IMG/VR virus record: IMGVR_UViG_3300010167_001484
Coordinates: 64,001 to 128,000 of that record
Direction: 5' to 3' (one strand)
Origin: a virus
Lineage: Duplodnaviria > Caudoviricetes
Length of the DNA: 64,000 nt
Position numbers and translations under genes: made by a program. The notes beneath the pieces are model-generated. The model had not been told where the DNA came from. It searched no databases and was given only the letters and a program-made list of their open reading frames with translations. Positions 47,263-61,364 of the stretch are shown here, one piece after another. Position 1 is the first letter of the stretch, and each line of letters begins with the position of its first letter.

Positions 47263-47874
47263 ATTTTACATAAATATGATGAAGCCATAGCTGAAAATCT
47301 TCAAGAATCTTTTAATCAAGATTCTGATAAACGTGTTACTGTGAAGGCTGTTTCTTCTGAAAGTATTTTACAACTTGTTGCTCAGATAAAAGAAGATGAA
47401 ATAGAGTTTCCTGTTGTTGCTCTAGTAAGGAGTCCTAATTACCAATTAGATTCAGCCAGAATGAATTTTACAATGAGGCAACAAGGTATTCAATCTGTTA
47501 TGGATACAGAAACAAATGAGATATTTCAAGAAAGATCTCTTCCAGTTACATTGAGTTACAGTTTAACTATTCTAGCAACTAATACAATAGATATGGATGA
47601 ACTCGAAAGAGAGTTACTCTTCAAATATACATCCATGTATTTCTTAAGTATAAATTTACCTTATGAGGCAGATCGTAAGATTAGATTCGGTATTGAGGTT
47701 GATTTTGATCAAGATATAGATAGATCTTCTACTACAGGTGAATATTTAGCTGAAGGGAAATTGCATCAAACAGTGATACCGTTAAAATGTCAAGGTGCTG
47801 TATTAGTTCATTATACACCATTTAAATTAAAACGTACAGAAGTTGGTTATGAGATAGTCACACCCGGGGAGTGA
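47263..47874 (+). CDS. probable tail terminator/completion protein (gp15-like); start probably ATT at 47263
   Basis: FPVVAL.R and PVTLSYSLTI...DELERELLF motifs; frame is open upstream of GTG 47341 with an RBS before the ATT. Confidence 0.55.
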   Translation: MLHKYDEAIAENLQESFNQDSDKRVTVKAVSSESILQLVAQIKEDEIEFPVVALVRSPNYQLDSARMNFTMRQQGIQSVMDTETNEIFQERSLPVTLSYSLTILATNTIDMDELERELLFKYTSMYFLSINLPYEADRKIRFGIEVDFDQDIDRSSTTGEYLAEGKLHQTVIPLKCQGAVLVHYTPFKLKRTEVGYEIVTPGE

Positions 47875-48518
47875 TTATGGATATAAGATTAAAATTATAC
47901 ACCGGTGATGGTGATAGATTATTACCAGAATTAGATCGTGAATCTATTGTTGATTTAATATATCCAATAGGTAGTATATATTTGACTGTTAATGAATCAC
48001 GTCCTGAAATCTTATTTGGTGGAGAATGGGTAGAATGGGGTCAAGGAAGAGTTCCCATAGGATTAGGGCAAGGTGCAGGATTAACCAATCAATCTATTCT
48101 AGAGTATACAGGTGGATCAGAGACAATTTCTCATACACATACTAGTTCAGCTCATACACATACATCGGTTGCACATACACATACTAGTGCAGCTCATACT
48201 CATGCTGAAGGTACATTGGCTGCAAGTATGAATTCACAAACTGGTGGTATATATGTGCGAGAGAGGTCTGTTAGTGGTAATTGGCCTGCCACTTATTTAT
48301 TTAATATTCCTGGGGCTACAAGATCAAATACCACATTGGGTATGTCTGCAAACAATAATGCACAAGTTTTTGGGGCAACTGGATCTACAACTCCGGGAGC
48401 TACAGGATCTACAACCCCGGGAGCTACAGGATCTACAACTCCAAATGATACAGGAAATACAGTTGTATCCATTGTTCAACCCTATATAGTTTGTTATATG
48501 TGGAAACGGATTGCATAG
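47871..48518 (+). CDS. His-needle tail fibre/receptor-binding module 1
   Basis: YPIGSIY..LFGG.W...GR collar, HTH repeats, TGSTTPGA repeats, QPYIVCYMWKR. Confidence 0.8.
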   Translation: MIMDIRLKLYTGDGDRLLPELDRESIVDLIYPIGSIYLTVNESRPEILFGGEWVEWGQGRVPIGLGQGAGLTNQSILEYTGGSETISHTHTSSAHTHTSVAHTHTSAAHTHAEGTLAASMNSQTGGIYVRERSVSGNWPATYLFNIPGATRSNTTLGMSANNNAQVFGATGSTTPGATGSTTPGATGSTTPNDTGNTVVSIVQPYIVCYMWKRIA

Positions 48519-49168
48519 TGTCTAAGAAGTTAGAATTGAAAACAGAAGAAAGTGAAGAATTATATCCTAGAATACATGTTGATCAGATATATCCTATCGG
48601 TTCAATTTATATGAGTGTAAATAGTATCAATCCCTTTGAATTATTTGGAGGTGTATGGGAACCTTGGGCAGCTGGTAGAGTTCCTGTAGGTATAGAAGAT
48701 TTTGGTAAATTTAATTTATCTGAAGCTGTTGGAGGAGAAGAATCAACGATTTTAACAGTAGATCAACTAGCTCAACACAATCATAGTAATACTAATAATC
48801 CTACTACACTTCCAGCAAGTGGAGTTCCTAGTAATAATACTACAGCTAATCAATCTGCTAATCATAATCATACATATACAACTCCTCCTAGATTATTTGT
48901 TAATGTAGATAATTCAATAGGTTCAACTGAATGTATTAATCCAGCTATTGCAGAAGCTTCTAGAGTTCATGCTCGTGGTGGTCAAACAACTTGTAATCTT
49001 GATACAGGAACTACAAGCCATAATCTTACAAGCCATAATCATACAATGCAGAATCATACACATACGTTACCAAATCCTATACATCCTACAAATAATGAGG
49101 GCGCTAACCAAGCACATAATAATTTACAACCATATATAGTTTGTTATATGTGGAAACGTGTTGCATAA
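48518..49168 (+). CDS. His-needle receptor-binding module 2
   Basis: same framework; GTG start at 48518. Confidence 0.8.
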   Translation: MSKKLELKTEESEELYPRIHVDQIYPIGSIYMSVNSINPFELFGGVWEPWAAGRVPVGIEDFGKFNLSEAVGGEESTILTVDQLAQHNHSNTNNPTTLPASGVPSNNTTANQSANHNHTYTTPPRLFVNVDNSIGSTECINPAIAEASRVHARGGQTTCNLDTGTTSHNLTSHNHTMQNHTHTLPNPIHPTNNEGANQAHNNLQPYIVCYMWKRVA

Positions 49169-49177
49169 TAGAATTAG

Positions 49178-49909
49178 GTGATATATTTGAGAAAAAGATT
49201 AACATTATTTACAGAAGATGGAACAGAATTAATTGCAGGTCTTCCTGCTGATGAGATAGTTGATTTAATCTATCCTGTAGGTGCTGTATATATTTCTGTA
49301 GTTAATATCAATCCTGAAACATTATGGGGTGGAGAATGGGAATCTATAGGTAAGGGTCGTACTCTTGTTGGTGTAGATACTACAGATAATGATTTTAATG
49401 CTGTGGAGAAGATAGGTGGAATAAAGAATTCACCACATACTCATGCATTAACAAATCATGTACATTCTCAAGCTCATACTCACAATATGCCTCACACTCA
49501 TAATTCAGCGGCACATACTCATACAGTAGGAGATCATTACCATAGTTTAGATGCTAATGGTTTCGCTCAGATAGGTGTAAGGGTTGGAGGAAATTCTTTA
49601 GGTTATAATTTTGGTAATACAACATTCACATCTAGACAGTGTGGAGCATTTCAAACACCTGAAGTAGTTGCAAGTATACATGCAACCCCTTTATTTGGTA
49701 GAACTGCTGCTATGACTGCAGCAGCTAATACAGGATCTACTACGCCAGGAGTAACTGGCGCTGTTAATACAGCTGCTACTGCAGGTGTGAATACTGCGAA
49801 TACAGGTGATCCTACAACATTACCTGCAACAGGAAGTTCATCTAATGATAACATTAGTTCAAATCTTCAACCGTACATAACAGTATTCATTTGGAAGAGA
49901 GTCGCATAA
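49178..49909 (+). CDS. His-needle receptor-binding module 3
   Basis: same framework. Confidence 0.8.
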   Translation: MIYLRKRLTLFTEDGTELIAGLPADEIVDLIYPVGAVYISVVNINPETLWGGEWESIGKGRTLVGVDTTDNDFNAVEKIGGIKNSPHTHALTNHVHSQAHTHNMPHTHNSAAHTHTVGDHYHSLDANGFAQIGVRVGGNSLGYNFGNTTFTSRQCGAFQTPEVVASIHATPLFGRTAAMTAAANTGSTTPGVTGAVNTAATAGVNTANTGDPTTLPATGSSSNDNISSNLQPYITVFIWKRVA

Positions 49910-49940
49910 CCTTCTATTATAATAAGGAGATGGTAATAGT

Positions 49941-50366
49941 ATGAATAATCCAGAAATTGTGTTAACCAGTAATATCAAAAGAATAACATCTAATCAAGCT
50001 CCATCTGAGTTAGAGCTTCCTTTAGGTTTTATAGCTTTTGGAGAAGTTATGGGAGAATATAGAATATTTGGTAATTCTGATGGTAATATTGTAGATTTAA
50101 CAAATTTTGTTGTTATATCTCAACCTGATACTGTGAAAGGTAGAATTGGTGGAGAAGGACCTACACAAGATTTACCTTTTGAAGAATTGAAATATTTATT
50201 AGGAATACCTATCTTTGAATTAACTGGTGATTCTCTTAATATAAGAACTATTAAGAAAGATACTAGTTCCGAAGAAGAAGCTCCAATTGAACCTTGTTGT
50301 GAGAATTATCCAGATTGTAATTGTAATGTAGATATTCCAGAAGGTCCTCCTCCTATAGGACCGTAA
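49941..50366 (+). CDS. probable tail fibre anchor/adaptor protein
   Basis: P..L..G.IAF segment typical of fibre N-termini; follows a late promoter motif. Confidence 0.45.
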   Translation: MNNPEIVLTSNIKRITSNQAPSELELPLGFIAFGEVMGEYRIFGNSDGNIVDLTNFVVISQPDTVKGRIGGEGPTQDLPFEELKYLLGIPIFELTGDSLNIRTIKKDTSSEEEAPIEPCCENYPDCNCNVDIPEGPPPIGP

Positions 50367-50387
50367 AATTAGAGGGTGTAATTAAAT

Positions 50388-51860
50388 ATGAGTAATATAT
50401 TATTACAGAATTTTGGGGATGGAGAAATTTGGGTTCCGTGTGTATGTACAGATGCAACATATACAGATAAATTTTCTAAATTTATATTAGTTGAGTACAC
50501 AGTAATCAATAATAGACATGTAGGATTCTGTAAACTTTGTAATCGTAGTCATAGTCATGCTCCTGTATGGAATAGTGTATGGGACGGTAATCCTACATTC
50601 TTTCAACATAAGCGTAGTTGTATATATCCTGGTTGTACTATTCAAGAAAGTAAGAATCATGATATGGTATCTACTACAGTAGGAGTATCTAATCCTACAA
50701 GTTTACATAAAAGTGATTGTAACCATTGTAATGTAAGTTTTGAAAGTAATCATCAGAATTTTACATGGAGTGTTGCTAGTGCAAGTACTAATCCAACTTG
50801 GAGTAATACTATATGTGAATTTAGAAGGTGCACTGATTGTAATAGGCTTGAAACAAATGGACATACTTGGGGATTGCAGATAGTAGATAGAATAGGGGTG
50901 GAACATTGTACTTATGCTGGTGATGGTTCAAATAGTAATCCTCCTTTAGATCCAGCTAATGCTCAACATAGAATTACACACCGTTGTCAAAGATGTAATA
51001 GGTCTAATCACAACATAAGTCCGAACCCTCAAATACAGAATCATACAATGGGACCATGGACTCCTTGGTATAATAATAGTCAACATGGTTGTAGTAGAAC
51101 TCGTACTTGTACTGTTGTAGGTTGTGGCCAAAGTCAATATCAAAATGTTTCACATCAATGGAGTGGTAGTAATTGCACTAGATGCGGTTTAACTAATGCA
51201 CCTCAATGTTATATTACAGGTCAACACAATTTTATTACTCAGACTTATTATTGGAAGCATTGGTCTATACCTGATTTATATTGTTATCAAATAATAAAAT
51301 GTTCATACTGTGGATGTACTGCAAGTAAGGAGTCTCAAACTCATGATTTCACCATAACTGTTCCAAATGCTCCTGCCAGTACAAAAGCTTGTAGAAGATG
51401 TGGTGTATGTAATAAACATTGGAATAATAATGCATGGACCAACAACGGTATCAATGAAAAACAAGCAGGAACATGTTCTTCTCCAAGTTGTACACAACCT
51501 GCACCTATTCATTATAGAGGACATACATGGAGATTAGGATGGGAAAGAAATTCAACACAACATTGGCAGATATGTAATTCTTGTCCTACTAACAATAGAG
51601 CCGAGCGTAATCGTGCAAGTCACGATTTTGGGAATTGGTTTTTCTGGAATCAAGATAATGATATATGTCAAAGAAGATTTGAAAGCTGTATATGTGGTCA
51701 ACCTAATCTAGATGTCATAAGAGAACACATATATGATGAGCATGATAAGTGTACAAGACCTGGTTGTACTTGGAATAAAGAAGTAATTGAAGATGTGATT
51801 GAATGGTGTCCATTCTGTAATGGAACAGGGTGTTCAAGCTGTAAGAAGGATGTGATATAA
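50388..51860 (+). CDS. Cys/His/Trp-rich repeat protein (putative Zn-binding fibre or adhesin)
   Basis: many H-x-W...C-xx-C units over 490 aa. Confidence 0.7.
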   Translation: MSNILLQNFGDGEIWVPCVCTDATYTDKFSKFILVEYTVINNRHVGFCKLCNRSHSHAPVWNSVWDGNPTFFQHKRSCIYPGCTIQESKNHDMVSTTVGVSNPTSLHKSDCNHCNVSFESNHQNFTWSVASASTNPTWSNTICEFRRCTDCNRLETNGHTWGLQIVDRIGVEHCTYAGDGSNSNPPLDPANAQHRITHRCQRCNRSNHNISPNPQIQNHTMGPWTPWYNNSQHGCSRTRTCTVVGCGQSQYQNVSHQWSGSNCTRCGLTNAPQCYITGQHNFITQTYYWKHWSIPDLYCYQIIKCSYCGCTASKESQTHDFTITVPNAPASTKACRRCGVCNKHWNNNAWTNNGINEKQAGTCSSPSCTQPAPIHYRGHTWRLGWERNSTQHWQICNSCPTNNRAERNRASHDFGNWFFWNQDNDICQRRFESCICGQPNLDVIREHIYDEHDKCTRPGCTWNKEVIEDVIEWCPFCNGTGCSSCKKDVI

Positions 51861-53218
51861 TGCCTTTCATATGTGAAGATGTACTTATACCTGAAGTGGC
51901 AGGTAAATTAACATTCAATAATCAACAGTTGATGAAAGTTATATATGATGATGTAGAAGTTTGGTCTGTAACACCTTTCAGAATAGCTACATTAGATATA
52001 TTACCTGTTATGGTAGTAGGTATACAGTTTATTCAAACAATTATTAGTGTTTCGCATACTGATAAGATTGTAGAAAATCTTGATGGAGAAGGGTATATAG
52101 TTGAATATGTATTAGATAGAAAATTCAGTTTAGCGGGTGGTGAGCTTCCTACAGGATTAACATTAGATGAAGATGGAGTTTTATCGGGTATACCTGAGGA
52201 AGAAGGTATATTCACTTTTGAAATAAAATCTGAGATTGTAGATGGTGAATCTGATGTCAAAGAATTCTCAGTGTATGTTAGGCCTGCAACAACAGATTGG
52301 GTTGTAGAATTTCCGATACTTATTGAAACATTGATGAATAAAGGTAGAGTATTCATCACAGAACCTTCACCAGATGTGTTCAGATATTTTATCATAAATG
52401 GGCATCTGAGTGAATATCTAGAAATAGTGCCAGATTATCACAAACATGAGGGTTCATACTCTTATATTGAGCCATTGACAGTTTGTCCGTCTGCTCCGAA
52501 GATTACAAGTATAACTCGTGGAATAGATACTTTAACTATATATTGGGATAGACCTGAATTAGATGGTAACGTACCTATATTATATCAGATTTCTCTAGAT
52601 GGTGGTACAACATGGATGATAGCTAAAGGTCAGAATGAAGATACTATAGCTGATACAGATATATTAACTAAGTATGATATAATTGTTAGAGGTTATAACG
52701 TCTTCTATATTGGTCCAAATAGTGAACCATTTATATCCTATCCATCAATTATAGCAACTGTTATTGATCCTGAAGATAGTGAAACTAGTGAAGCGAGATT
52801 AGGTCAGATAGTATATAATTCATTAGTTGATGGTGTTTCGCATAATATTAAGATCATGGAATTTATACAGACTGAAGATAAGATGACTATGGTATTAGAA
52901 CTTACATCTCTTTGTGATATAGAGGGTCATACATTCAATGAATGGTCTGTTATTGAAGAGCCAACGTGTACAGAATTTGGTGAAGAGCAACGTAGTTGTT
53001 CCAGATGTAAATATATAGAATCACAAGAGATTATAGCTTTAGGTCATATTCCTGGTATAGCTGCTACGTGTGTAGAAGATCAAACATGTGAAGTTTGTAA
53101 TGAAATATTAGTATCTGCATTAGGTCATTCTTTCGGTGAATGGTATATAGATGGTGATCTGGAGCGAAGAGATTGTAAATTGTGTGATTACTATGAAACA
53201 CAGGATATATCTGAATGA
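51860..53218 (+). CDS. Ig-like (He_PIG) + FN3 + Cys/His repeat virion protein
   Basis: GELPTGLTL..DGVLSGIP; PSAPKI...IYWDRP..DG FN3; PTCTE.G...C..C...ALGH repeats. Confidence 0.75.
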   Translation: MPFICEDVLIPEVAGKLTFNNQQLMKVIYDDVEVWSVTPFRIATLDILPVMVVGIQFIQTIISVSHTDKIVENLDGEGYIVEYVLDRKFSLAGGELPTGLTLDEDGVLSGIPEEEGIFTFEIKSEIVDGESDVKEFSVYVRPATTDWVVEFPILIETLMNKGRVFITEPSPDVFRYFIINGHLSEYLEIVPDYHKHEGSYSYIEPLTVCPSAPKITSITRGIDTLTIYWDRPELDGNVPILYQISLDGGTTWMIAKGQNEDTIADTDILTKYDIIVRGYNVFYIGPNSEPFISYPSIIATVIDPEDSETSEARLGQIVYNSLVDGVSHNIKIMEFIQTEDKMTMVLELTSLCDIEGHTFNEWSVIEEPTCTEFGEEQRSCSRCKYIESQEIIALGHIPGIAATCVEDQTCEVCNEILVSALGHSFGEWYIDGDLERRDCKLCDYYETQDISE

Positions 53219-53904
53219 ATAAATTAGAATTAGTCGATAGTGATGGTGAATCTTTATTTCCAATAACAGATGTTGAGTGTGTTAATGGTATTGAAGATTT
53301 AATAGATACAAAAATGATAACTCCTGAGGATATGATAAATTTCATATTTAATAAGATTTATCCGGTTGGTTGTATCTACATGTCAATAAATAATAAGAAT
53401 CCTTCTTTACTTTTTGGTGGTGAATGGTTAGCTTGGGGTCAAGGTAGAGTTCCCGTTGGTGTAGATACTAGTGGTACATTTAATACTATAGAGAAAATAG
53501 GTGGCGCAGAAAATGTTGGACACACGCATACAAGTGCAGCTCATACTCATACAAGTGCTGCTCATACTCATACTGGTCCAAGTCATAGTCATGGACTAGG
53601 TGCAGGGTACGCTTTTGCGGGTCGGGGTGGTACAAATGCGGCATCTCCTACAGCTATAACTATAAATGAAAAGACAGTAGCGCAGTGGGCGTCTACTGCA
53701 CAGTTTGGTGCTGTAGGTACAACGCAAATGTATTCAACGCGTGGTATAGGATTAGGTGGCACTACTGATAATGGAGGTACAGGAGCAACTGGAAGTACGA
53801 CTCCAGGAGCAACTGGAAGTACGACTCCAGGAGCAACTGGAAGTACATCTTCGTCAACAGTACAACCTTATATCACCTGTTATATGTGGAAAAGAGTTGC
53901 ATAA
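53215..53904 (+). CDS. His-needle receptor-binding module 4
   Basis: same framework. Confidence 0.8.
   Translation: MNKLELVDSDGESLFPITDVECVNGIEDLIDTKMITPEDMINFIFNKIYPVGCIYMSINNKNPSLLFGGEWLAWGQGRVPVGVDTSGTFNTIEKIGGAENVGHTHTSAAHTHTSAAHTHTGPSHSHGLGAGYAFAGRGGTNAASPTAITINEKTVAQWASTAQFGAVGTTQMYSTRGIGLGGTTDNGGTGATGSTTPGATGSTTPGATGSTSSSTVQPYITCYMWKRVA
53780..53846 (+). repeat. 24-bp tandem repeat (GATGSTTP) within module 4
   Basis: CAGGAGCAACTGGAAGTACGACTC x2.8; related arrays at 48378-48443 and 57783-57830. Confidence 0.85.
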
Positions 53905-54488
53905 TGTCTATAGAATTAGAATTAAAAACAAATGATAATGAAAACTTATACCCTAATATAAACATTCAAAAAGTAATTGATATAATTTATCCTATAGGTT
54001 CTGTATATATTACAGTTAATGATATTAGTCCGCAAATATTATTTGGAGGTATTTGGGAACAGATAAGTAAAGGTCGTACTCTTGTTGGTGTAGATGATTC
54101 TGATTTTGATTTCAATATTGAAGAAAAATGGGGGGGGGCGAAGTCCCTATCTCATTCACACAATAATCCAGCAATAGGTAGTACAATAGCAACAAATGTT
54201 GCTCACGCTATAACAGTGGCTCAGATTCCTCAACATAATCATACATCTAGAATGTTAACTAGAGGTGTTGCAGATACTCATTCGACAGATGTAGCGTGGC
54301 CTAGGTTTGCATTAGGTCCGACAAATAGTTCGTTTGAAAGTTGGGTATTCACCGGAAATACGGGTTCTGGAAATACACACAATCATACTCAAAATAGTCA
54401 TACACACTCTTTAACTAAAACGGATAATACAGAAATATCTATATTACAACCTTATTTAACAGTATTCATATATAAGAGAGTATCATGA
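53904..54488 (+). CDS. His-needle receptor-binding module 5
   Basis: same framework; ATG at 53904. Confidence 0.8.
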   Translation: MSIELELKTNDNENLYPNINIQKVIDIIYPIGSVYITVNDISPQILFGGIWEQISKGRTLVGVDDSDFDFNIEEKWGGAKSLSHSHNNPAIGSTIATNVAHAITVAQIPQHNHTSRMLTRGVADTHSTDVAWPRFALGPTNSSFESWVFTGNTGSGNTHNHTQNSHTHSLTKTDNTEISILQPYLTVFIYKRVS

Positions 54489-55183
54489 AAGAATTAGAAT
54501 TCAAAAATGATGATGGTCAACGATTAAACCCGAGGACACATTTTTCACAAATTGATGGATTAGATGATCAGTTAAAAATAAATATGCCTCCTGGTGGTAT
54601 TATAATGTGGTCAGGTACAGTGAGTAATGTACCTGAAGGTTGGTTGTTGTGTGATGGTACTAAAGGTACCCCAGATCTAAGGGATAGATTTATAGTAGGA
54701 GCTGGTAGTACATATAATCCAAGTAGCATAGGTGGTAATAACACTGTTGCGATTACAACAGCACAAATGCCTCAACATAATCATGGTAGTACAGGTAGCA
54801 CTACTCCTGGAAATACAGGTAATCCTACAACTACATTAAGTGCTGCTAGTGCTGGAGCTCATGAACATCTTGTTGGTATGAATAGTTCTGGAGCTCCGGC
54901 TGATAGAAGAATATATGGAGATGTATTAGGAGGATCAACCTCAATTTTATTGATGTATCCTTTAAGTAGTTCAAATCATGGTGTATTATCTATAAGAAAT
55001 GGTGCAGGATATACAGGTGGACCTTATGCAATTAGTAATGGTGCACATACTCATACAGTAACTAATAGTGCTCATGTACATACTAGTGCAGCTCATACTC
55101 ATAGTACAGGAGATACTGGTAGTGGTGCTGCACATGAAAATCGTCCACCTTATTATGCGTTATGCTTCATAATGAAAGAATGA
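54485..55183 (+). CDS. tail-collar-type His-needle module 6
   Basis: PPGGIIMWSG..VPEGWLLCDG..GTPDLRDRFIVGAG collar; HENRPPYYALCFIMK. Confidence 0.85.
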   Translation: MKELEFKNDDGQRLNPRTHFSQIDGLDDQLKINMPPGGIIMWSGTVSNVPEGWLLCDGTKGTPDLRDRFIVGAGSTYNPSSIGGNNTVAITTAQMPQHNHGSTGSTTPGNTGNPTTTLSAASAGAHEHLVGMNSSGAPADRRIYGDVLGGSTSILLMYPLSSSNHGVLSIRNGAGYTGGPYAISNGAHTHTVTNSAHVHTSAAHTHSTGDTGSGAAHENRPPYYALCFIMKE

Positions 55184-55184
55184 T

Positions 55185-55892
55185 ATGAAAGAATTAGAAC
55201 TCAAAACTAATGATGATATATTGAATCCTATAACTGATGAAATACTGAATTTCCTCTTCAATAGAATTTATCCTATCGGTTATATCTATATGAGTGTTGA
55301 TGATATCAATCCTGGTGAATTATTCTGCGGAACTTGGATAAGATGGGGTAGCGGTAGAGTACCTGTAGGTATAGATAAGACTGATTCTGATTTCGATGCT
55401 ACTGAGAAGATAGGTGGATACAAAAGTCACACTCACAATCTAAGTAATCATACTCATACAATAAGCAACCATGTACATTCACAAGCTCACACTCACAATA
55501 GTGCAGCTCATTTTCATTCAGAAGGAGCTCATACACATAATCTAGATGAAAATGGAGCAGCAGCAATATTTTGGAGAAATGGTGCTATTATACATGAAAG
55601 AAATCAAAGTATAGGTATAACAGGGTGGGGAAGATATATTATAACAGGAACAGCAGATACTGTGAATGAAAATACCACTCAAAGTACACGCATAAAAGGA
55701 AGAACAGCAGCTATGACAGCAGCAGCAAATACAGGATCTACTACTCCTGGAGTAACTGGAGGAGTTAATACTGATAATACTGGTAATCCTACAGTATTGC
55801 TTGCTAGTGGAGAACCATCAAATAATAATACAAATCAACAATCAAATGTTCAACCATATATAATATGTTATATGTGGAAAAGAGTTTCTTGA
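55185..55892 (+). CDS. His-needle receptor-binding module 7
   Basis: same framework. Confidence 0.8.
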   Translation: MKELELKTNDDILNPITDEILNFLFNRIYPIGYIYMSVDDINPGELFCGTWIRWGSGRVPVGIDKTDSDFDATEKIGGYKSHTHNLSNHTHTISNHVHSQAHTHNSAAHFHSEGAHTHNLDENGAAAIFWRNGAIIHERNQSIGITGWGRYIITGTADTVNENTTQSTRIKGRTAAMTAAANTGSTTPGVTGGVNTDNTGNPTVLLASGEPSNNNTNQQSNVQPYIICYMWKRVS

Positions 55893-55893
55893 T

Positions 55894-56499
55894 ATGAATA
55901 AAGAGTTAATACTTCAAGATACTGAAGATAGTAAATTACATATTAGACCTCATGTTGATTATATTTATCCTATTGGTAGCATTTATATGTCTGTGAATGA
56001 TGTAGATCCTTCAGAATTGTTTGGAGGTATTTGGGAATTATTCAGCAGAGGTCGTACTATTGTCGGTATTGATGAAGGTGATTCTGATTTCGATGAGTCT
56101 GAGAAAATAGGTGGAAATGGGAATCATATACACAATCTTAATTCTCATACTCATACGAGTACATCTCATACTCATACTGTAGGTGCTCATACTCATAATT
56201 TAGATGCTAATGGAGCCGCATGTATTCTAATACAAGCTACTACAATAGCTACTGAAGACGGTGTAACTACTACAGGTTGGAATCGTCGTCGAAATATAAA
56301 TATAAATTCAGCGGTATCTGATGGTGGTGTTTTTGGTCATGGTACACCATTAAGAGGTAGAACAACAGCAATGACTGCAGCAGCTAATACAGGATCTACT
56401 ACTCCTGGAGTAACCGGAGTTCCATCAAACAATAATACAAATCAACAATCAAATTTACAACCATACATAACATGCTATATATTCAAACGTGTAGCATAA
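55894..56499 (+). CDS. His-needle receptor-binding module 8
   Basis: same framework. Confidence 0.8.
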   Translation: MNKELILQDTEDSKLHIRPHVDYIYPIGSIYMSVNDVDPSELFGGIWELFSRGRTIVGIDEGDSDFDESEKIGGNGNHIHNLNSHTHTSTSHTHTVGAHTHNLDANGAACILIQATTIATEDGVTTTGWNRRRNININSAVSDGGVFGHGTPLRGRTTAMTAAANTGSTTPGVTGVPSNNNTNQQSNLQPYITCYIFKRVA

Positions 56500-56514
56500 G
56501 AAAGAGAGGAAATT

Positions 56515-56913
56515 ATGAATTATGACAGAGTAGAGATTGTACCAAAAAGTGGAGATGTGTTCGATATAGAGTTTTATTATGAAGATGAACTGGTTCAAAC
56601 TTATAATAATATTCCTAATAACGATGCACATCAATATGCAGATTTAGTAGGTTCAACGTTTTTACCACCCTCAGAACCTTCTGATCCGTCAGAACCGTCG
56701 TTCTTTGAAGTATTCAAATTAGGTTTAGAATTAATGTCTGGACAGATTGGAGTAGATAGTATACCTGAGCATATGGTAGATCATCCAATCTTGAAGGGAA
56801 TTATAGATAAACAGAAAGTTGAATCTTCTATCTTAGAAGAGATGTCTCAAACAGGTCAAATACTTGAAGCATTATTAGAAGGTTATATGGAGGAGAGTGA
56901 TACAGATGAGTGA
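56515..56913 (+). CDS. hypothetical tail-fibre-associated protein
   Basis: RBS; lies within the fibre cluster. Confidence 0.55.
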   Translation: MNYDRVEIVPKSGDVFDIEFYYEDELVQTYNNIPNNDAHQYADLVGSTFLPPSEPSDPSEPSFFEVFKLGLELMSGQIGVDSIPEHMVDHPILKGIIDKQKVESSILEEMSQTGQILEALLEGYMEESDTDE

Positions 56914-57523
56914 TAAATTAGATAGTTTTCGTCAATTAGGTAAAGAAATTGCTCGTAGTAAACGAGCTGCAGTAAGAATTGAAGGAACAGTAGAAGAAGT
57001 AGAATCAATGATTACAACTGTTTATGAAATCAAAGATACAGTTGATAAATTAGATGATCAAATGACGGTGTTATTACCTTCTATTGTATCTAAACTTAGA
57101 TTTCTTACAGAGAATGATCGTATTACATTGACACAATTTCCTTATGATTGTTTTCCTGAATTTGTTTGGATTCAGGATAGAGATTACGATAGAGGGGAAG
57201 TAATACGATTTAATAATTACAAATATCTTCTTCTAGATGGTGGTCGTATTGATGAAGGTCAAACTCCTGCAACAAGTAATAGATGTCTATTACATCGAGA
57301 TATTGCTAGTTATGATATAGATGGTACTATCCGTAAATGGGTTCGTGAGGAATTCTGTCTGCAAGATTTTTGGCGGTGGTGGGATGCTGACTCAAATAAA
57401 CCTCAGCAACATGGCTGGTATAGAGTTAAAGTGCGTCTTGTAAATGATGCAACAGATCCTCCGAATGCTACAGACCGTTGGGAATTTATGGGAAGCGAAA
57501 TTGATCCACCTGACCATGAGTAA
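56906..57523 (+). CDS. tail-fibre-associated protein with Trp-rich carbohydrate-binding-like repeat
   Basis: W...RDY.RGEVIRFN..KY pattern. Confidence 0.5.
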   Translation: MSDKLDSFRQLGKEIARSKRAAVRIEGTVEEVESMITTVYEIKDTVDKLDDQMTVLLPSIVSKLRFLTENDRITLTQFPYDCFPEFVWIQDRDYDRGEVIRFNNYKYLLLDGGRIDEGQTPATSNRCLLHRDIASYDIDGTIRKWVREEFCLQDFWRWWDADSNKPQQHGWYRVKVRLVNDATDPPNATDRWEFMGSEIDPPDHE

Positions 57524-58154
57524 AGAATTAGAGATAAAAAATCAACAGGATGAAATACTGCACCCAGTGATAAATATGGAAAAAGTATTCAATGCTATAT
57601 ATCCTATAGGTGCAGTATACATCTCTGTATCAAATATTGGTCCTGATATATTATTTGGTGGAACTTGGGAATCTATAGGTCAAGGTCGTACTTTAGTTGG
57701 TATTGATTCATCTGATACTGATTTCGATGTAGTAGAAAAAATCGGTGGTCATAAGAAATTACAAGAACACAATCATGGTAATACAGGATCTACAACTCCA
57801 GGAGCTACAGGATCTACAACTCCTGGAGTTACTGGAAATAATAGTGCAGCTCATACGCATACTACTTATATGCTTTCTCATCCGTATGCCTCTCCAGGAA
57901 CACATTTAAGGACATTTGCTATAACTGATTGGAGAGATGGTCAATTAGCTCCAGCAGGGACAACTCGTGTAGGTCATAATGTTAGTAATAGAGATGGTAC
58001 ATCTGGAAATAATAGTGCTAACCATACCCATACATCTGCAGCCCATACCCATACATCTGCAGCTCACATACACAGTATATCAAATGCAGGAACTGGAAAT
58101 TCTGAAAATTTACAGCCATATATTACAGTTTTCATGTGGAAGCGAGTAGCATAG
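57516..58154 (+). CDS. His-needle receptor-binding module 9
   Basis: same framework; ATG at 57516. Confidence 0.8.
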   Translation: MSKELEIKNQQDEILHPVINMEKVFNAIYPIGAVYISVSNIGPDILFGGTWESIGQGRTLVGIDSSDTDFDVVEKIGGHKKLQEHNHGNTGSTTPGATGSTTPGVTGNNSAAHTHTTYMLSHPYASPGTHLRTFAITDWRDGQLAPAGTTRVGHNVSNRDGTSGNNSANHTHTSAAHTHTSAAHIHSISNAGTGNSENLQPYITVFMWKRVA

Positions 58155-58155
58155 A

Positions 58156-58776
58156 ATGGAAGATTCAGTACTAGAATTTAAAACAAATGATGATAGGATA
58201 CTATATCCTGTTATTAATATGAATAAACTATTTGACGCTATGTATCCTATAGATAGTATTTATATATCAATGAACAATACGAATCCCTCAGAATTATTTG
58301 GAGGAATTTGGGAGTCGATATGTAAAGGTAGAACATTGATAGGTGTAGATGAAGAAGATTCTGATTTTGACGTAGTAGAATTAAAGGGTGGTAGTAAGAA
58401 TCATCTTCACAACTTGAATAATCATACTCATACGAGTACAGCACATACTCATAATATAAGTTCTCATACACATAATTTAAGTACCACAGGTGGAGCTCGT
58501 ATTCGAGCAGATTCTGGGACAGTATATAGTGGGGATTGGTCAGATGTGAATGTACAATCTAATATAACTAGACGTATAGCTGTTACAGGGGTGACTGATA
58601 GTGCAGCGATTCGTCAAGGAACAGGTCTTATGGGTAGAACTGATGGAATAACAACAATAACTAATACAGGTGCTACAACTTCTGGAGCTACAGGTGCACC
58701 TTCAAACAATAATACTAATTTAGAATCAAATCTTACTCCTTTTATTACTTGTTATATGTGGAGACGAGTAGCATAG
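58156..58776 (+). CDS. His-needle receptor-binding module 10
   Basis: same framework. Confidence 0.8.
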   Translation: MEDSVLEFKTNDDRILYPVINMNKLFDAMYPIDSIYISMNNTNPSELFGGIWESICKGRTLIGVDEEDSDFDVVELKGGSKNHLHNLNNHTHTSTAHTHNISSHTHNLSTTGGARIRADSGTVYSGDWSDVNVQSNITRRIAVTGVTDSAAIRQGTGLMGRTDGITTITNTGATTSGATGAPSNNNTNLESNLTPFITCYMWRRVA

Positions 58777-58848: not shown

Positions 58849-59151
58849 TTGATTTATAAAAATACTGGACCTTCTGTAAAAACTTTTTATGGAGTTACTT
58901 TTGCATCAGGAGAAATAAAAGAAGTAAGCGGTATAATAGATCATCATAAATTTATACAAGTAGATTCGTTACCTAAGGAACCTCCTGTTGTTAACGATAT
59001 TCCAATAGATCCAGCTAAGGTTATTAGAAATAGGGGAAGACCTCCCAAGATAATCCCAGAACAAGAGGTTGTGCTTGATACGCCAGATATAGATTCTGGT
59101 AAAGTCAACGAAGATATCTCAAATGAAAATAATGAACAGGAGGAAATATAA
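58849..59151 (+). CDS. hypothetical protein upstream of the sheath gene
   Basis: YKN.....KTFYGVTF..GEIKEV; RGRPPK AT-hook-like motif. Confidence 0.6.
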   Translation: MIYKNTGPSVKTFYGVTFASGEIKEVSGIIDHHKFIQVDSLPKEPPVVNDIPIDPAKVIRNRGRPPKIIPEQEVVLDTPDIDSGKVNEDISNENNEQEEI

Positions 59152-59153
59152 AG

Positions 59154-61364
59154 GTGGCCCAGATTGTTATAAATGAAATAAGCGCGAATTATAGTTACAA
59201 CATCGGGACAAATTCTTATTGTTGTGTAGCATTGCCAATAACTGCGTGTTGGGGTCCTGCATTTGAAGATGTGAGTAATGAGAATGTTTTGTCCAAAGCA
59301 GAGTGGGAAGAGAGATTTTCAGATCTATATGGTAATAAGATTGAATGGATGCAAGAGAACACAGCTTGGACGAGATTTCCCGCAACTCAAGTAGGTCTTG
59401 AAGCATTTTTATCAGCTTATAGGGGGCCTGCTGCTGGTCATCGTATAGCTAAAGATTTTTCTTATCAGATGGCAATGACATTGCTGGTATCTGGTTATGA
59501 TGTATGGTGTTGCAGACTCAGCCCTGGAGATCGTGCTAGAGGTGTATTTATCACATCTGATGGTGATGATAAGTATACAAATTGTTTGAAAGTTAAAGCT
59601 AAATATCCGGGAACATTTGGTAATAATCTTCGTATTGAGATTAAACCTACATTCCGTAATAGACGGATTGTTTGGACTTATACAGTTCATGTAGTAGATG
59701 TTTCAGGAGTTCAAACAGCTGTTGAACACAGTCCATTCTTGTTTAATGTAACAGATGATCATATTGCCGCATTTGGTGATACAATACCACATATAAAAGA
59801 AATAAACTCTAGATTTATTGACTTCCAAATGATTGGTAAGATTCCAAACGGTATTGATGAATTTGAATTAGTTAAACAAGGTCAAAGAGCTACACAACCT
59901 ATCGATCTAAGATTTGATGATAGTCATACAGAAGTACCTCGTAACGAATTTATTAATCAAAGACGAGCTTTCATGACATTTGCTCAATTATCGGGTGGTA
60001 CTGATAGACGTGCTCTTGAAGATCATGAAGGTAATCCCATTCAAGATGGTGATGGAGATGTTGTAGTTCCTGAAGATACAAATCATCCTGAAGCAAAGTA
60101 TGCTAATGCTCTTATACATCTTGCGATGAAACATGCGATGTCAAGATACAGGTCTTTATCAAGTATATATGATGATTTTAATGGTCTCGGTTGGGAGAAA
60201 GCAATTAATGCTCCTTACTCAGCTTCTAATGATCTACTTCCAGAAACTAAAGGTATAGTAGATTCTATTGAATACATAGGTATAATTTCAGAGAAATTGA
60301 ATGCACCTTCTGAAATTGTGACAGAACAAGATGAAGCAGAGATTATAGAATACAAAGAATGGTTATATACAAATGCGATGTATGTATATGATTTACTCCG
60401 TGATCGTTTAGCATACAATCCAAAGAGAATCATCAGCCCTGGTTGGGATGACCAAGATTTTAATGAACTTGATGGTGAAGGCCCAAGGCGTGTTATTCTC
60501 ATATCTCCGATGCATAAGATGCTAATGGATGCAGCCTATTGGAGTCGTTGCGGTACTGCATTTATTGACATACCTAGATCGGCTGCAAGAAATGCAGTTT
60601 ATAGAGATGATGCCGATAAGCCTGGTGACCAAGGATATGCTCAGATGCTTGCAAGGCTTCCAGCAGGTACAGATGGGTTTGATCAAAATGTAGTAATGTA
60701 TCATACGAACTCGGCACTATTTGCACCTTGGGGCCAATACCAATATGTAGGAACAAACAAACAGAATCCTGCTTCGCCTTCATTCCAAGCATTGATGATC
60801 CAAAGATCTATGATACTAAATCAGCCAATCCAGTATGAATGGTTATTACCGTCAAATAGACGTCATGGTTTAAGACTTGGTACGCTAGATTACAAAGTTC
60901 CGAAGAAACTGTTAGATATATGGCAAAGTCTAGAAGGTGTAGGCGTAAACATCATAACTCAGATACCTGATATGGGTGTAGGATTATGGGGCAACTCTAC
61001 GCTATTTGAAGTACCTCCAGTAACATACAATGCTCTATCGAACTTAAGCACAAGATTTTTGATGAACGCCGTCAAAGATATAGCTTACAGATGTGGTTTA
61101 ACAATAACCTTCAGCTACAACAATCTGCAAGCTTATAACAAATTCTACGCTGGAGTAACCCCAATATTAGATACGATGAAGAATGTAGGTGCGATAGAAG
61201 ATTACTACGTCAGAATGCAAGCAGATATAACCGCCCTAGATTCCGTAAATGCCAATACTGTTGTGGGTAAGATCTATCTTGTGATCAATGGTGTCGTGAA
61301 CGATATTATAATTGATTTGGTAGCTCTTCCACCTGGAGTAGATCTTAATCAGTATAGAGCATAA
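59154..61364 (+). CDS. contractile tail sheath protein
   Basis: I.INE N-terminus, AKYPGTFGN, LSGGTD, GVNII..P..G..LWGNSTL, STRFL C-terminal sheath domain. Confidence 0.9.
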   Translation: MAQIVINEISANYSYNIGTNSYCCVALPITACWGPAFEDVSNENVLSKAEWEERFSDLYGNKIEWMQENTAWTRFPATQVGLEAFLSAYRGPAAGHRIAKDFSYQMAMTLLVSGYDVWCCRLSPGDRARGVFITSDGDDKYTNCLKVKAKYPGTFGNNLRIEIKPTFRNRRIVWTYTVHVVDVSGVQTAVEHSPFLFNVTDDHIAAFGDTIPHIKEINSRFIDFQMIGKIPNGIDEFELVKQGQRATQPIDLRFDDSHTEVPRNEFINQRRAFMTFAQLSGGTDRRALEDHEGNPIQDGDGDVVVPEDTNHPEAKYANALIHLAMKHAMSRYRSLSSIYDDFNGLGWEKAINAPYSASNDLLPETKGIVDSIEYIGIISEKLNAPSEIVTEQDEAEIIEYKEWLYTNAMYVYDLLRDRLAYNPKRIISPGWDDQDFNELDGEGPRRVILISPMHKMLMDAAYWSRCGTAFIDIPRSAARNAVYRDDADKPGDQGYAQMLARLPAGTDGFDQNVVMYHTNSALFAPWGQYQYVGTNKQNPASPSFQALMIQRSMILNQPIQYEWLLPSNRRHGLRLGTLDYKVPKKLLDIWQSLEGVGVNIITQIPDMGVGLWGNSTLFEVPPVTYNALSNLSTRFLMNAVKDIAYRCGLTITFSYNNLQAYNKFYAGVTPILDTMKNVGAIEDYYVRMQADITALDSVNANTVVGKIYLVINGVVNDIIIDLVALPPGVDLNQYRA

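Follow-up and report, generated by a model that had tools for sequence, protein, structure and literature searches.

How one phage comes to encode ten separate small proteins that each look like the tip of a tail fibre, and what such a set might do for it, is the question raised by a 10.9-kb island in the DNA analysed here. The window, as the whole stretch of 64,000 nucleotides is called below, corresponds to bases 64001-128000 of an IMG/VR virus record (IMGVR_UViG_3300010167_001484) of 214,046 bp that is rated 100% complete, and the genome, that of an uncultured T4-like phage, encodes a portal of the T4 type (Pfam Portal_T4), a tail sheath and a tail tube. Between positions 47877 and 58776 the island holds ten intact, co-oriented plus-strand genes, designated M1 to M10 (Table 1). 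Our favoured explanation, to which we give a probability of roughly 0.58, is that they encode accessory receptor-binding tips, mounted by a shared N-terminal peptide, which were acquired and amplified in this lineage and which would widen its host range. Coordinates labelled as genome refer to the whole 214-kb record and all others to the window. A first-pass annotation, made from the letters alone, had described ten intact genes with a common plan in this interval, and open reading frames (ORFs), profile matches and alignment bear out that description. Its lengths of 195-243 aa, however, had to be revised: when module starts were refined via ribosome-binding sites and the position of the shared peptide, lengths of 194-240 aa were obtained, in agreement with independent gene-call lengths of 213, 216 and 240 aa.

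Nine of the ten modules match the whole Gp10_C profile (PF21939, positions 1-139) with scores of 72.7-93.3 bits and E-values of 7.6e-20 to 3.5e-26, the curated family cut-off being 27 bits. M6 has no PF21939 match; it matches Pfam Collar (PF07484) at E 7.3e-5 and 23.1 bits, which is below the cut-off of 24 bits, as well as the PHROG tail-fibre families phrog_8469 (5.3e-31) and phrog_1800 (2.1e-28). Judged by these scores, the family matches of the modules lie far above chance level, and the Collar match, together with the presence of the peptide, agrees with the earlier view of M6 as a module with a different collar yet the same N-terminal peptide. In alignment, the modules follow a common plan that consists of the N-terminal peptide, half of the collar, HxH repeats, a divergent centre, Thr/Gly-rich (TG) repeats and a QPYITCYMWKRVA-type end. 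Compared in pairs, the nine Gp10_C modules are on average 54% identical in the N-terminal half of the collar and 66% in the C-terminal strand, versus 30% in the centre, which fits the constant ends and variable tips originally proposed. The needle is found in two orders. In M1, M3, M4, M7, M8 and M10, the first arm carries 4-6 HxH motifs at 7-residue spacing and the second arm 8-residue TG repeats, and in M2, M5, M6 and M9 the order is mirrored, with TG repeats first and HxH motifs on the return arm. There are 4-6 HxH motifs per module, and by their sequence they may be able to coordinate metal.

A profile of the nine modules matches the C-terminal domain of T4 gp10 (2FKK) at E 1.1e-11. The match is made up of the IYPIG strand at the N-terminus and, separately, the QPYITVY..R.A strand at the extreme C-terminus, and the collar therefore appears to be split, with its N half at residues ~25-75, its last strand at the C-terminus and an insertion of 100-146 residues intervening. 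A collar split in this manner fits a needle chain predicted to run out and back, as in the collar-needle-head plan. The structure model, an AF2 single chain, covers M8 among the modules and shows a pLDDT of about 90 in the collar and of 45-51 in the centre; such a low-confidence centre would be explained by the intertwined trimer that is expected, because a single chain cannot represent the needle. Foldseek searches with this model ranked gp10 chains first, with 2FKK, 2FL8, 9F4B and 5IV5 as best matches at probabilities of 0.99-1.00 (1.00 for 2FKK), with TM-scores that are low (0.3) since the inserted needle is unmodelled in the monomer. When compared with PDB sequences, M6 matches the Bizionia prophage tip C24 (6OV6, E 7.5e-10) and a tail fibre (9QGO, E 2.4e-9); the Gp10_C modules match 6OV6 weakly (E 0.6 by profile, E 0.7 by Foldseek), and 2XGF did not appear.

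The modules can be set beside two known kinds of structure. They share with the T4 gp10 C-terminal domain an IYPIGxIY N-terminal strand, a QPYITxYxWxRxA end and a modelled collar that superposes best on it, but they are stand-alone proteins of ~200 aa in ten copies with a long HxH/TG/tip insertion, whereas the T4 domain, which is without an HxH needle, forms the end of a structural wedge protein of 602 aa. They share with the gp37 tip (2XGF) and C24 (6OV6) a predicted plan of a collar, an HxH needle, a distal head and a return of the chain to the collar, but here the tip is the whole protein, whereas in gp37 it is the end of a 1026-aa fibre for which chaperones are needed. C24 and the T4 gp37 tip have collar, needle and head domains in common, with a needle that holds metal ions (PMC12028318), and in gp37 iron is coordinated by pairs of HxH motifs (PMC11705849). 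The sequence homology and the collar fold thus support the first-pass reading of the modules as trimeric HxH-needle tips, while the trimer and its metal binding stay at the level of prediction. Under this reading, each tip would be a homotrimer formed by a gp10/gp12-type collar, a metal-stapled needle in which the HxH arm runs against the Thr/Gly arm, and, at the distal end, divergent loops with which it would contact the host surface.

All ten modules begin with the peptide h-x-L-x-L-K-T-x-D-x-x-x-L-x-P, roughly (K)ELELKT-D---L-P, and a regular expression for it matches only these ten genes among the six-frame ORFs of the 214-kb genome. The codons of the peptide vary at synonymous sites between modules, which argues that selection acts on the protein. 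For M6, identity to the other modules is 29% in the peptide versus 32% among the others, and 27% in the collar versus 54%; over its first 31 nt, M6 has 90% identity to M7. The three Gp10_C modules fused in the 1104-aa main fibre of this phage are without the peptide. Since it is kept on M6, which has a collar of another family, and is missing from the fused modules, the peptide appears to have a function of its own that is linked to the status of separate subunit, and would go with that status rather than with the fold. We propose that the tips are produced as individual subunits, each of which would be fixed to the virion by this N-terminal peptide of ~20 residues, so that one virion or virion population might display up to ten specificities besides that of the main fibre. 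Precedents exist in the secondary receptor-binding proteins of K1-5, G7C, CBA120, KP32 and phiK64-1, in which a conserved N-terminal stretch of 7-29 residues mediates docking (PMC6872550), and experimental validation of docking of this kind is reported (PMC13352976). Two wider roles considered for the peptide were rejected. It is not a family-wide part of the Gp10_C domain, as the 18-150 residues at the N-terminus of foreign stand-alone homologues are unrelated to it, with similar starts on a few only (P0053, P0079, P0109, P0030 and L157), nor is it a common docking tag, having been found on a single foreign stand-alone module (L157) among 4,941 ORFs of 170 loci.

As the annotation had observed, start and stop codons in the island mostly abut or overlap. 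Overlaps of 1 or 4 nt or gaps of 1-2 nt occur at the M1/M2, 452-aa gene/M4, M4/M5, M5/M6, M6/M7, M7/M8 and M9/M10 junctions, and the end of the 208-aa gene overlaps the start of M9 by 8 nt. A terminator scan of the island found no intergenic terminators on the coding strand, and a promoter scan of it found fewer promoter-like sites than in shuffled sequences, which is uninformative. Because the genes overlap or abut on one strand with no intergenic terminators, co-expression of the modules is plausible. At several junctions (53886-53904, 55875-55893, 58137-58155 and similar ones), the codons of the C-terminal W-K-R-V read as a GGAAAAGAG-like stretch ~10 nt ahead of the next start, and the end of one module gene seems to double as the ribosome-binding site for the next.

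The distribution of the island was analyzed in relatives recruited from metagenomes by the sheath protein and from IMG/VR by the tube protein. Neither a megablast search with the island nor a tblastn search with the sheath gave a match among 50,697 deposited phages, indicating that a cultured relative is absent from that collection. At 14 related loci (L083, L084, L087, L088, L089, L174, L175, L176, L178, L179, L180, L181, L183 and L188), a homologue of the 177-aa gene upstream of the island is followed within about 100 nt by a homologue of the 100-aa gene downstream of it and then by the sheath gene. Given this close spacing, the whole 10.9-kb block is absent from the 14 loci, including, besides the ten modules, the genes for the 141-, 490-, 452-, 132- and 208-aa proteins. 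A PF21939 search of the whole records of ten relatives, five of which are CheckV-100% genomes of 122-176 kb, yielded no match, whereas by the same search this genome has 14 matches and unrelated phage records have one to four. The N-terminal domain of the main fibre is absent from five complete relatives; in three complete relatives the main fibre gene is missing and its slot holds a ~115-aa ORF only. Because the relatives are without both Gp10_C and the fibre N-domain, the whole tip module family would be a gain in the lineage of this phage. The comparison of copy number across relatives that the first pass had called for thus gives zero Gp10_C in ten relatives and an empty site at 14 loci. 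Since all reachable relatives lack the modules, and yet build the conserved tail, its notion of a repertoire is sustained, and the genomic comparison indicates that the set is accessory rather than composed of fixed parts, and that it was acquired and amplified in this lineage.

The same comparison bears on the possibility that the modules are fixed structural parts, such as baseplate pins or neck or sheath decorations like T4 gp10/gp11, all of them present in every particle and without a role in host range. The closest solved homologue is indeed the structural C-terminal domain of T4 gp10, the island sits between tail-terminator-like and sheath genes, and the module genes look co-transcribed. 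Nevertheless, the reachable relatives build the same conserved tail without Gp10_C, so the modules are non-essential; conservation within them is lowest in the centre, as in adhesins; and homologues elsewhere occupy positions of receptor-binding proteins (see below). We therefore regard fixed structural parts as unlikely. In the closest reachable relative, a 2-kb contig with an 88% identical sheath, an unrelated 299-aa gene (L090:74-973) lies immediately ahead of the 100-aa and sheath genes, where M10 sits here, which suggests that the site is a variable spot with cargo that differs between phages.

Stand-alone proteins of the module family are common (627 proteins of 110-352 aa), and about 40% of the matching frames at IMG/VR loci encode 300 aa or less. 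They typically sit behind a large distal tail protein and ahead of lysis genes. In Blautia phage NatCom_2932 the final tail gene ahead of the lysis genes ends in the module, and in other phages a stand-alone module gene lies directly behind a distal tail protein of 590-950 aa; by gene order, these are usual places of receptor-binding proteins. The module is common in Bacillota phages and prophages, where its nearest kin are found. The premise that such tips are normally the C-terminus of one long fibre consequently needs correction in view of the many stand-alone forms, but the co-occurrence of ten of them is unusual. The best 80 IMG/VR loci have, counted within 10 kb either side, one copy in 74 cases and two in 6; the best 80 prokaryote-genome loci, nearly all from Bacillota, have one, two and three copies in 76, 3 and 1 cases; and each of the 126 matching records among the deposited phages contains a single match. 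Ten stand-alone plus three fused copies are well outside this usual range.

Three other loci with several tandem genes were found. An IMG/VR contig (L041:57-5107) encodes three fibre-like proteins of 327-360 aa and a 195-aa Gp10_C protein, most of which start with MTNN-IF-GNVGIGT, each fibre-like gene being followed by a gene of ~120-130 aa. In an uncultured Tenericutes metagenome-assembled genome (MAG; L141:1-2467), three Gp10_C modules are arranged in tandem, the second and third with signal-peptide-like N-termini, a hint that these proteins are secreted or exposed on the surface and do not belong to a virion. In an uncultured Bacilli MAG (L167:9707-17134), two tandem stand-alone modules with a near-identical ~65-residue N-terminus precede a 2039-aa YD-motif RHS-like protein. 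The last two arrangements, tandem tips heading an RHS-like operon and a triplet in which two copies have signal-peptide-like starts, are what can be cited in favour of non-virion proteins, released or displayed during infection, for instance in superinfection exclusion or host polymer binding. However, no signal peptide was detected on the ten modules, and their genes lie, translationally coupled, inside a late structural block beside the sheath gene; we consider a non-virion function the least probable of the explanations discussed here.

The history of the paralogues was assessed with a tree of the collar (77 columns, quick search), the groupings of which are weak. M1 and M4 cluster with the fibre modules FIB1-3 (SH-aLRT 90), and M3, M5, M8, M9 and M10 form another cluster. 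Collar groups cut across needle classes, M3 going with M5 and M9 by collar although about 80 bp of its TG arm are 83-88% identical in DNA to those of M7 and M8, and short blocks of 90-94% identity are common to the modules and the fibre gene. Duplication within the genome with some shuffling is likely on this evidence, and the absence of long near-identical DNA indicates that the paralogues are old. A tip module common in Bacillota phages and prophages would have been acquired and duplicated, with collars and needles shuffled, in an island between the gp15-like and sheath genes. The identity of paralogue DNA blocks, 65-88% with short 90-96% stretches in repeats, led us to reject recent gene conversion as well as a cassette switch. 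A diversity-generating retroelement (DGR) or an inversion switch was likewise rejected: the absence of reverse transcriptase and invertase, first noted in the window, extends to the whole genome, in which PF00078 (reverse transcriptase) and PF00239 (serine invertase) found no match while control genomes were matched, and all modules lie on one strand. A DNA switch is excluded because neither enzyme is encoded and the tightly coupled genes have their own starts. The array might still be mainly a cassette store that recombines with itself and with the main fibre gene, only some of the copies acting as proteins. The discordance between collar groups and needle classes, the TG arm common to M3, M7 and M8 and the blocks in common with the fibre gene would be expected in that case; on the other hand, all ten genes are intact and have their own starts, their peptide shows protein-level conservation, the blocks in common are short, lying mostly in low-complexity repeats, long near-identical ends are absent, and the enzymes named above are missing. 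We judge a cassette store to be very unlikely.

Several points weigh against interpreting the ten genes as peptide-mounted accessory tips. In T4, the C-terminal domain of gp10 is a structural part of the baseplate, not a receptor binder. The comparison of relatives stops short of the nearest ones, a 218,791-bp contig in which the homologue of the 560-aa wedge protein is 62% identical and two small contigs with 88% identity in the sheath. Needle and tip are confidently modelled nowhere, given the monomer pLDDT in that region, and virion incorporation and expression of the modules are predictions from sequence. Isolated N-terminal peptides match no Pfam family at E <= 10, and, the peptide being rare on foreign homologues as well, its docking role is argued by analogy. 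Lastly, no docking partner for the peptide was found: the T4 gp10 profile phrog_958 is matched in the genome at its C-terminal positions 436-606 only, and D1-D3, including the usual D2/D3 branching socket, are not detectable at profile level. The annotation's idea of a plug-in docking peptide hence stands as regards the peptide, which is on all ten modules and for which a mechanism is established elsewhere, but not as regards the docking scaffold, which was not found.

Two further accounts bear on the socket. The first is that the tips dock on a new type of socket, not on a T4gp10-like domain; each virion would then carry a random subset of tips, because ten trimers would compete for limited equivalent sockets, and the burst would be mixed and bet-hedging without any DNA switch. 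We put this forward as a tentative possibility. Speculative candidates for a scaffold are a conserved 560-aa distal tail protein, its likewise conserved 504-aa neighbour and the island's own proteins, and a new socket might be sought in lineage-specific insertions of the first two or in the Cys-rich rod proteins of the island. The 560- and 504-aa proteins are about 190 and 200 residues longer, respectively, than in the tip-less relatives, the extra length consisting of several insertions, some of them Cys-rich, and of a Cys-rich C-terminal extension. The family of the 560-aa protein includes members with Pfam Tail_P2_I, and its N-terminal 180 residues, in a confident model, resemble the small baseplate proteins known as wedge or "triplex" proteins in pyocin R2, diffocin, phi812 and others (probability 0.8-1.0, E >= 1.5e-3), suggesting that it is gpI/TssG-like by fold; searches with the three distal tail proteins gave nothing by phmmer against PDB sequences and nothing in Pfam.

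The second account dispenses with a scaffold: the modules would be joined to one another, or to the main fibre, like beads on a string, the peptide plugging into a collar or C-terminus and specificity arising from assembly. The main fibre does string three modules in one chain with collagen-like or short linkers, M1 and M4 group with these fibre modules, and no separate socket protein was found. Nothing points directly to such chaining, however, the linkers between the fused modules are unrelated to the peptide, and buried tips would leave the variability of the distal region unexplained; we hold it to be improbable, to about the same degree as fixed structural parts.

Accessory tips mounted by a peptide would resemble several known systems without coinciding with any. 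Jumbo phages carry about ten or more adhesins per phage (PMC6872550, PMC13352976, PMC9700779, PMC10253068), and phiKp24 has hyperbranched fibres (PMC9700779). The anchor-branched systems of K1-5, G7C, CBA120, KP32/KP34, phiK64-1/RaK2 and phiKp24 are like the island in combining several adhesins, a short N-terminal peptide and variable distal parts, but their adhesins are long tailspikes or depolymerases directed at Gram-negative hosts and docked on T4gp10-like D2/D3, whereas the island consists of tandem minimal needle tips of ~200 aa with an unrelated peptide, no detectable D2/D3 and Bacillota kin. The island may work like an anchor-branched system, but is not classed as a member because the D2/D3 socket is undetectable. 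Another parallel is gp38 of T2, T6 and S16, a small, separately encoded adhesin that caps the fibre tip and has an attachment part and a variable receptor-contacting part; it differs from the modules in its fold and in being present in one copy per phage, and no homology to gp38 was found, although no search aimed at it was made. The invertible segments of Mu and P1 and the diversity-generating retroelement of BPP-1 also provide alternative fibre specificities in one phage, but they use a DNA invertase or a reverse transcriptase, neither of which this genome has, and each of the ten co-oriented genes has a start of its own. The chief natural model for a host range that is broad or can be switched is provided by phages with many receptor-binding proteins, which to our knowledge are little understood outside Gram-negative systems in which large tailspikes dock on T4gp10-like domains. 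With ten tips of ~200 residues, hardly larger than a collar, a metal needle and a binding loop together, and one short address peptide, the island would be the most compact multi-adhesin version yet. If the peptide is a universal plug, it would constitute a minimal natural system for mounting adhesins on a virion, would allow polyvalent virions to be tested against individually different ones and would show a jumbo phage spreading its bets over hosts. New in the present comparison are the absence of the block from relatives, the lack of Gp10_C in ten of them and the rarity of such arrays; it dates the set as a recent, lineage-specific gain and makes it a clear case of adhesin gene amplification.

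Table 1. Genes of the island, its flanks and the other tail genes referred to in the text.
Feature	Position	Strand	Description
177-aa gp15-like gene (upstream flank)	47341..47874	+	Island starts 2 nt past its stop
M1	47877..48518	+	213 aa; Gp10_C PF21939 E 7.6e-20; GGGGAG ribosome-binding site before ATG; four HxH on first arm, three 8-residue TG repeats on second arm
M2	48518..49168	+	216 aa; PF21939 E 5.5e-25; GTG start with 1-nt overlap with M1 stop; mirrored needle, HxH mainly on return arm
M3	49187..49909	+	240 aa; PF21939 E 1.3e-23; six HxH; start relocated to TTG at 49187, preceded by AGGTGA, with which a 240-aa gene call concurs
141-aa protein	49941..50366	+	First ~50 residues match N-anchor of two collagen/Collar fibres (BLASTP E 4.7e-11, 1.7e-9)
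490-aa Cys/His-rich protein	50388..51860	+	40 Cys, about 15 CxxC-type knuckles
452-aa protein	51860..53218	+	Ig-like He_PIG PF05345 E 2.7e-5; three C-terminal CxxC repeat units
M4	53215..53904	+	229 aa; PF21939 E 2.4e-22; 47-residue N-terminal part; nearest to the main-fibre modules
M5	53904..54488	+	194 aa; PF21939 E 3.5e-26; mirrored needle
M6	54485..55183	+	232 aa; gp12/C24-type Collar replaces Gp10_C collar; mirrored needle
M7	55185..55892	+	235 aa; PF21939 E 7.2e-23; six HxH
M8	55894..56499	+	201 aa; PF21939 E 1.1e-24
132-aa acidic protein	56515..56913	+	No Pfam or PHROG family
208-aa protein	56897..57523	+	No Pfam or PHROG family; no close IMG/VR relative
M9	57516..58154	+	212 aa; PF21939 E 6.8e-25; mirrored needle, TG repeats first, three HxH on return arm
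M10	58156..58776	+	206 aa; PF21939 E 2.2e-24; final island gene
100-aa gene and tail sheath (downstream flank)	58849..61364	+	phrog_23 tail sheath 3.3e-9; synteny
560-aa distal tail protein	genome 152970-154652 (L092:4970-6652)		
504-aa protein	genome 155509-157023 (L092:7509-9023)		
1104-aa main fibre	genome 157035-160349 (L092:9035-12349)		N-terminal domain followed by collagen-like GXY repeats and by three Gp10_C modules in tandem, of which the first has the mirrored order
Second fibre cluster	genome 168641-172454		
151-aa protein of second fibre cluster	genome 172708-173163		

The gene that borders the island upstream encodes a 177-aa protein with homologues in all relatives at 43-58% identity. 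Its atlas feature score of 0.94 to clusters with PF16724 (T4-gp15_tss) serves as a lead only, and the protein is a probable T4 gp15-like tail sheath stabiliser. Among the non-module genes of the island, the 490-aa protein is probably a rod of zinc-ribbon repeats, to judge from its knuckles; it matched no Pfam or PHROG family and has no close IMG/VR relative, and its atlas neighbours are weak. The gene of the 452-aa protein has an overlap of 1 nt with the 490-aa gene and of 4 nt with M4, its three terminal CxxC units resemble the knuckles of the 490-aa protein, and both genes are translationally coupled to M4-M8. For the 132-aa acidic protein, a function as fibre-assembly chaperone is a guess. 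The C-terminal part of the 208-aa protein (…GWYRVKV…DPPNATDRWE…) resembles, by eye, the 151-aa protein of the second fibre cluster.

The 141-aa protein gave no Pfam or PHROG match, and the two collagen/Collar fibres that it matches are encoded ~55 kb downstream of its gene, beyond the window; its ~50-residue N-anchor is that of the fibres of the second cluster (E 5e-11). In that cluster, a 303-aa fibre is composed of N-anchor, Collar and head, a 501-aa collagen/Collar fibre ends at the very point at which the head of the 303-aa protein begins, and three stand-alone heads of 148, 146 and 140 aa are homologous to the 303-aa head (E 2e-9 to 9e-5). By these matches, the second cluster, which counts in favour of peptide-mounted accessory tips, represents another case of separately encoded tips in the same phage.

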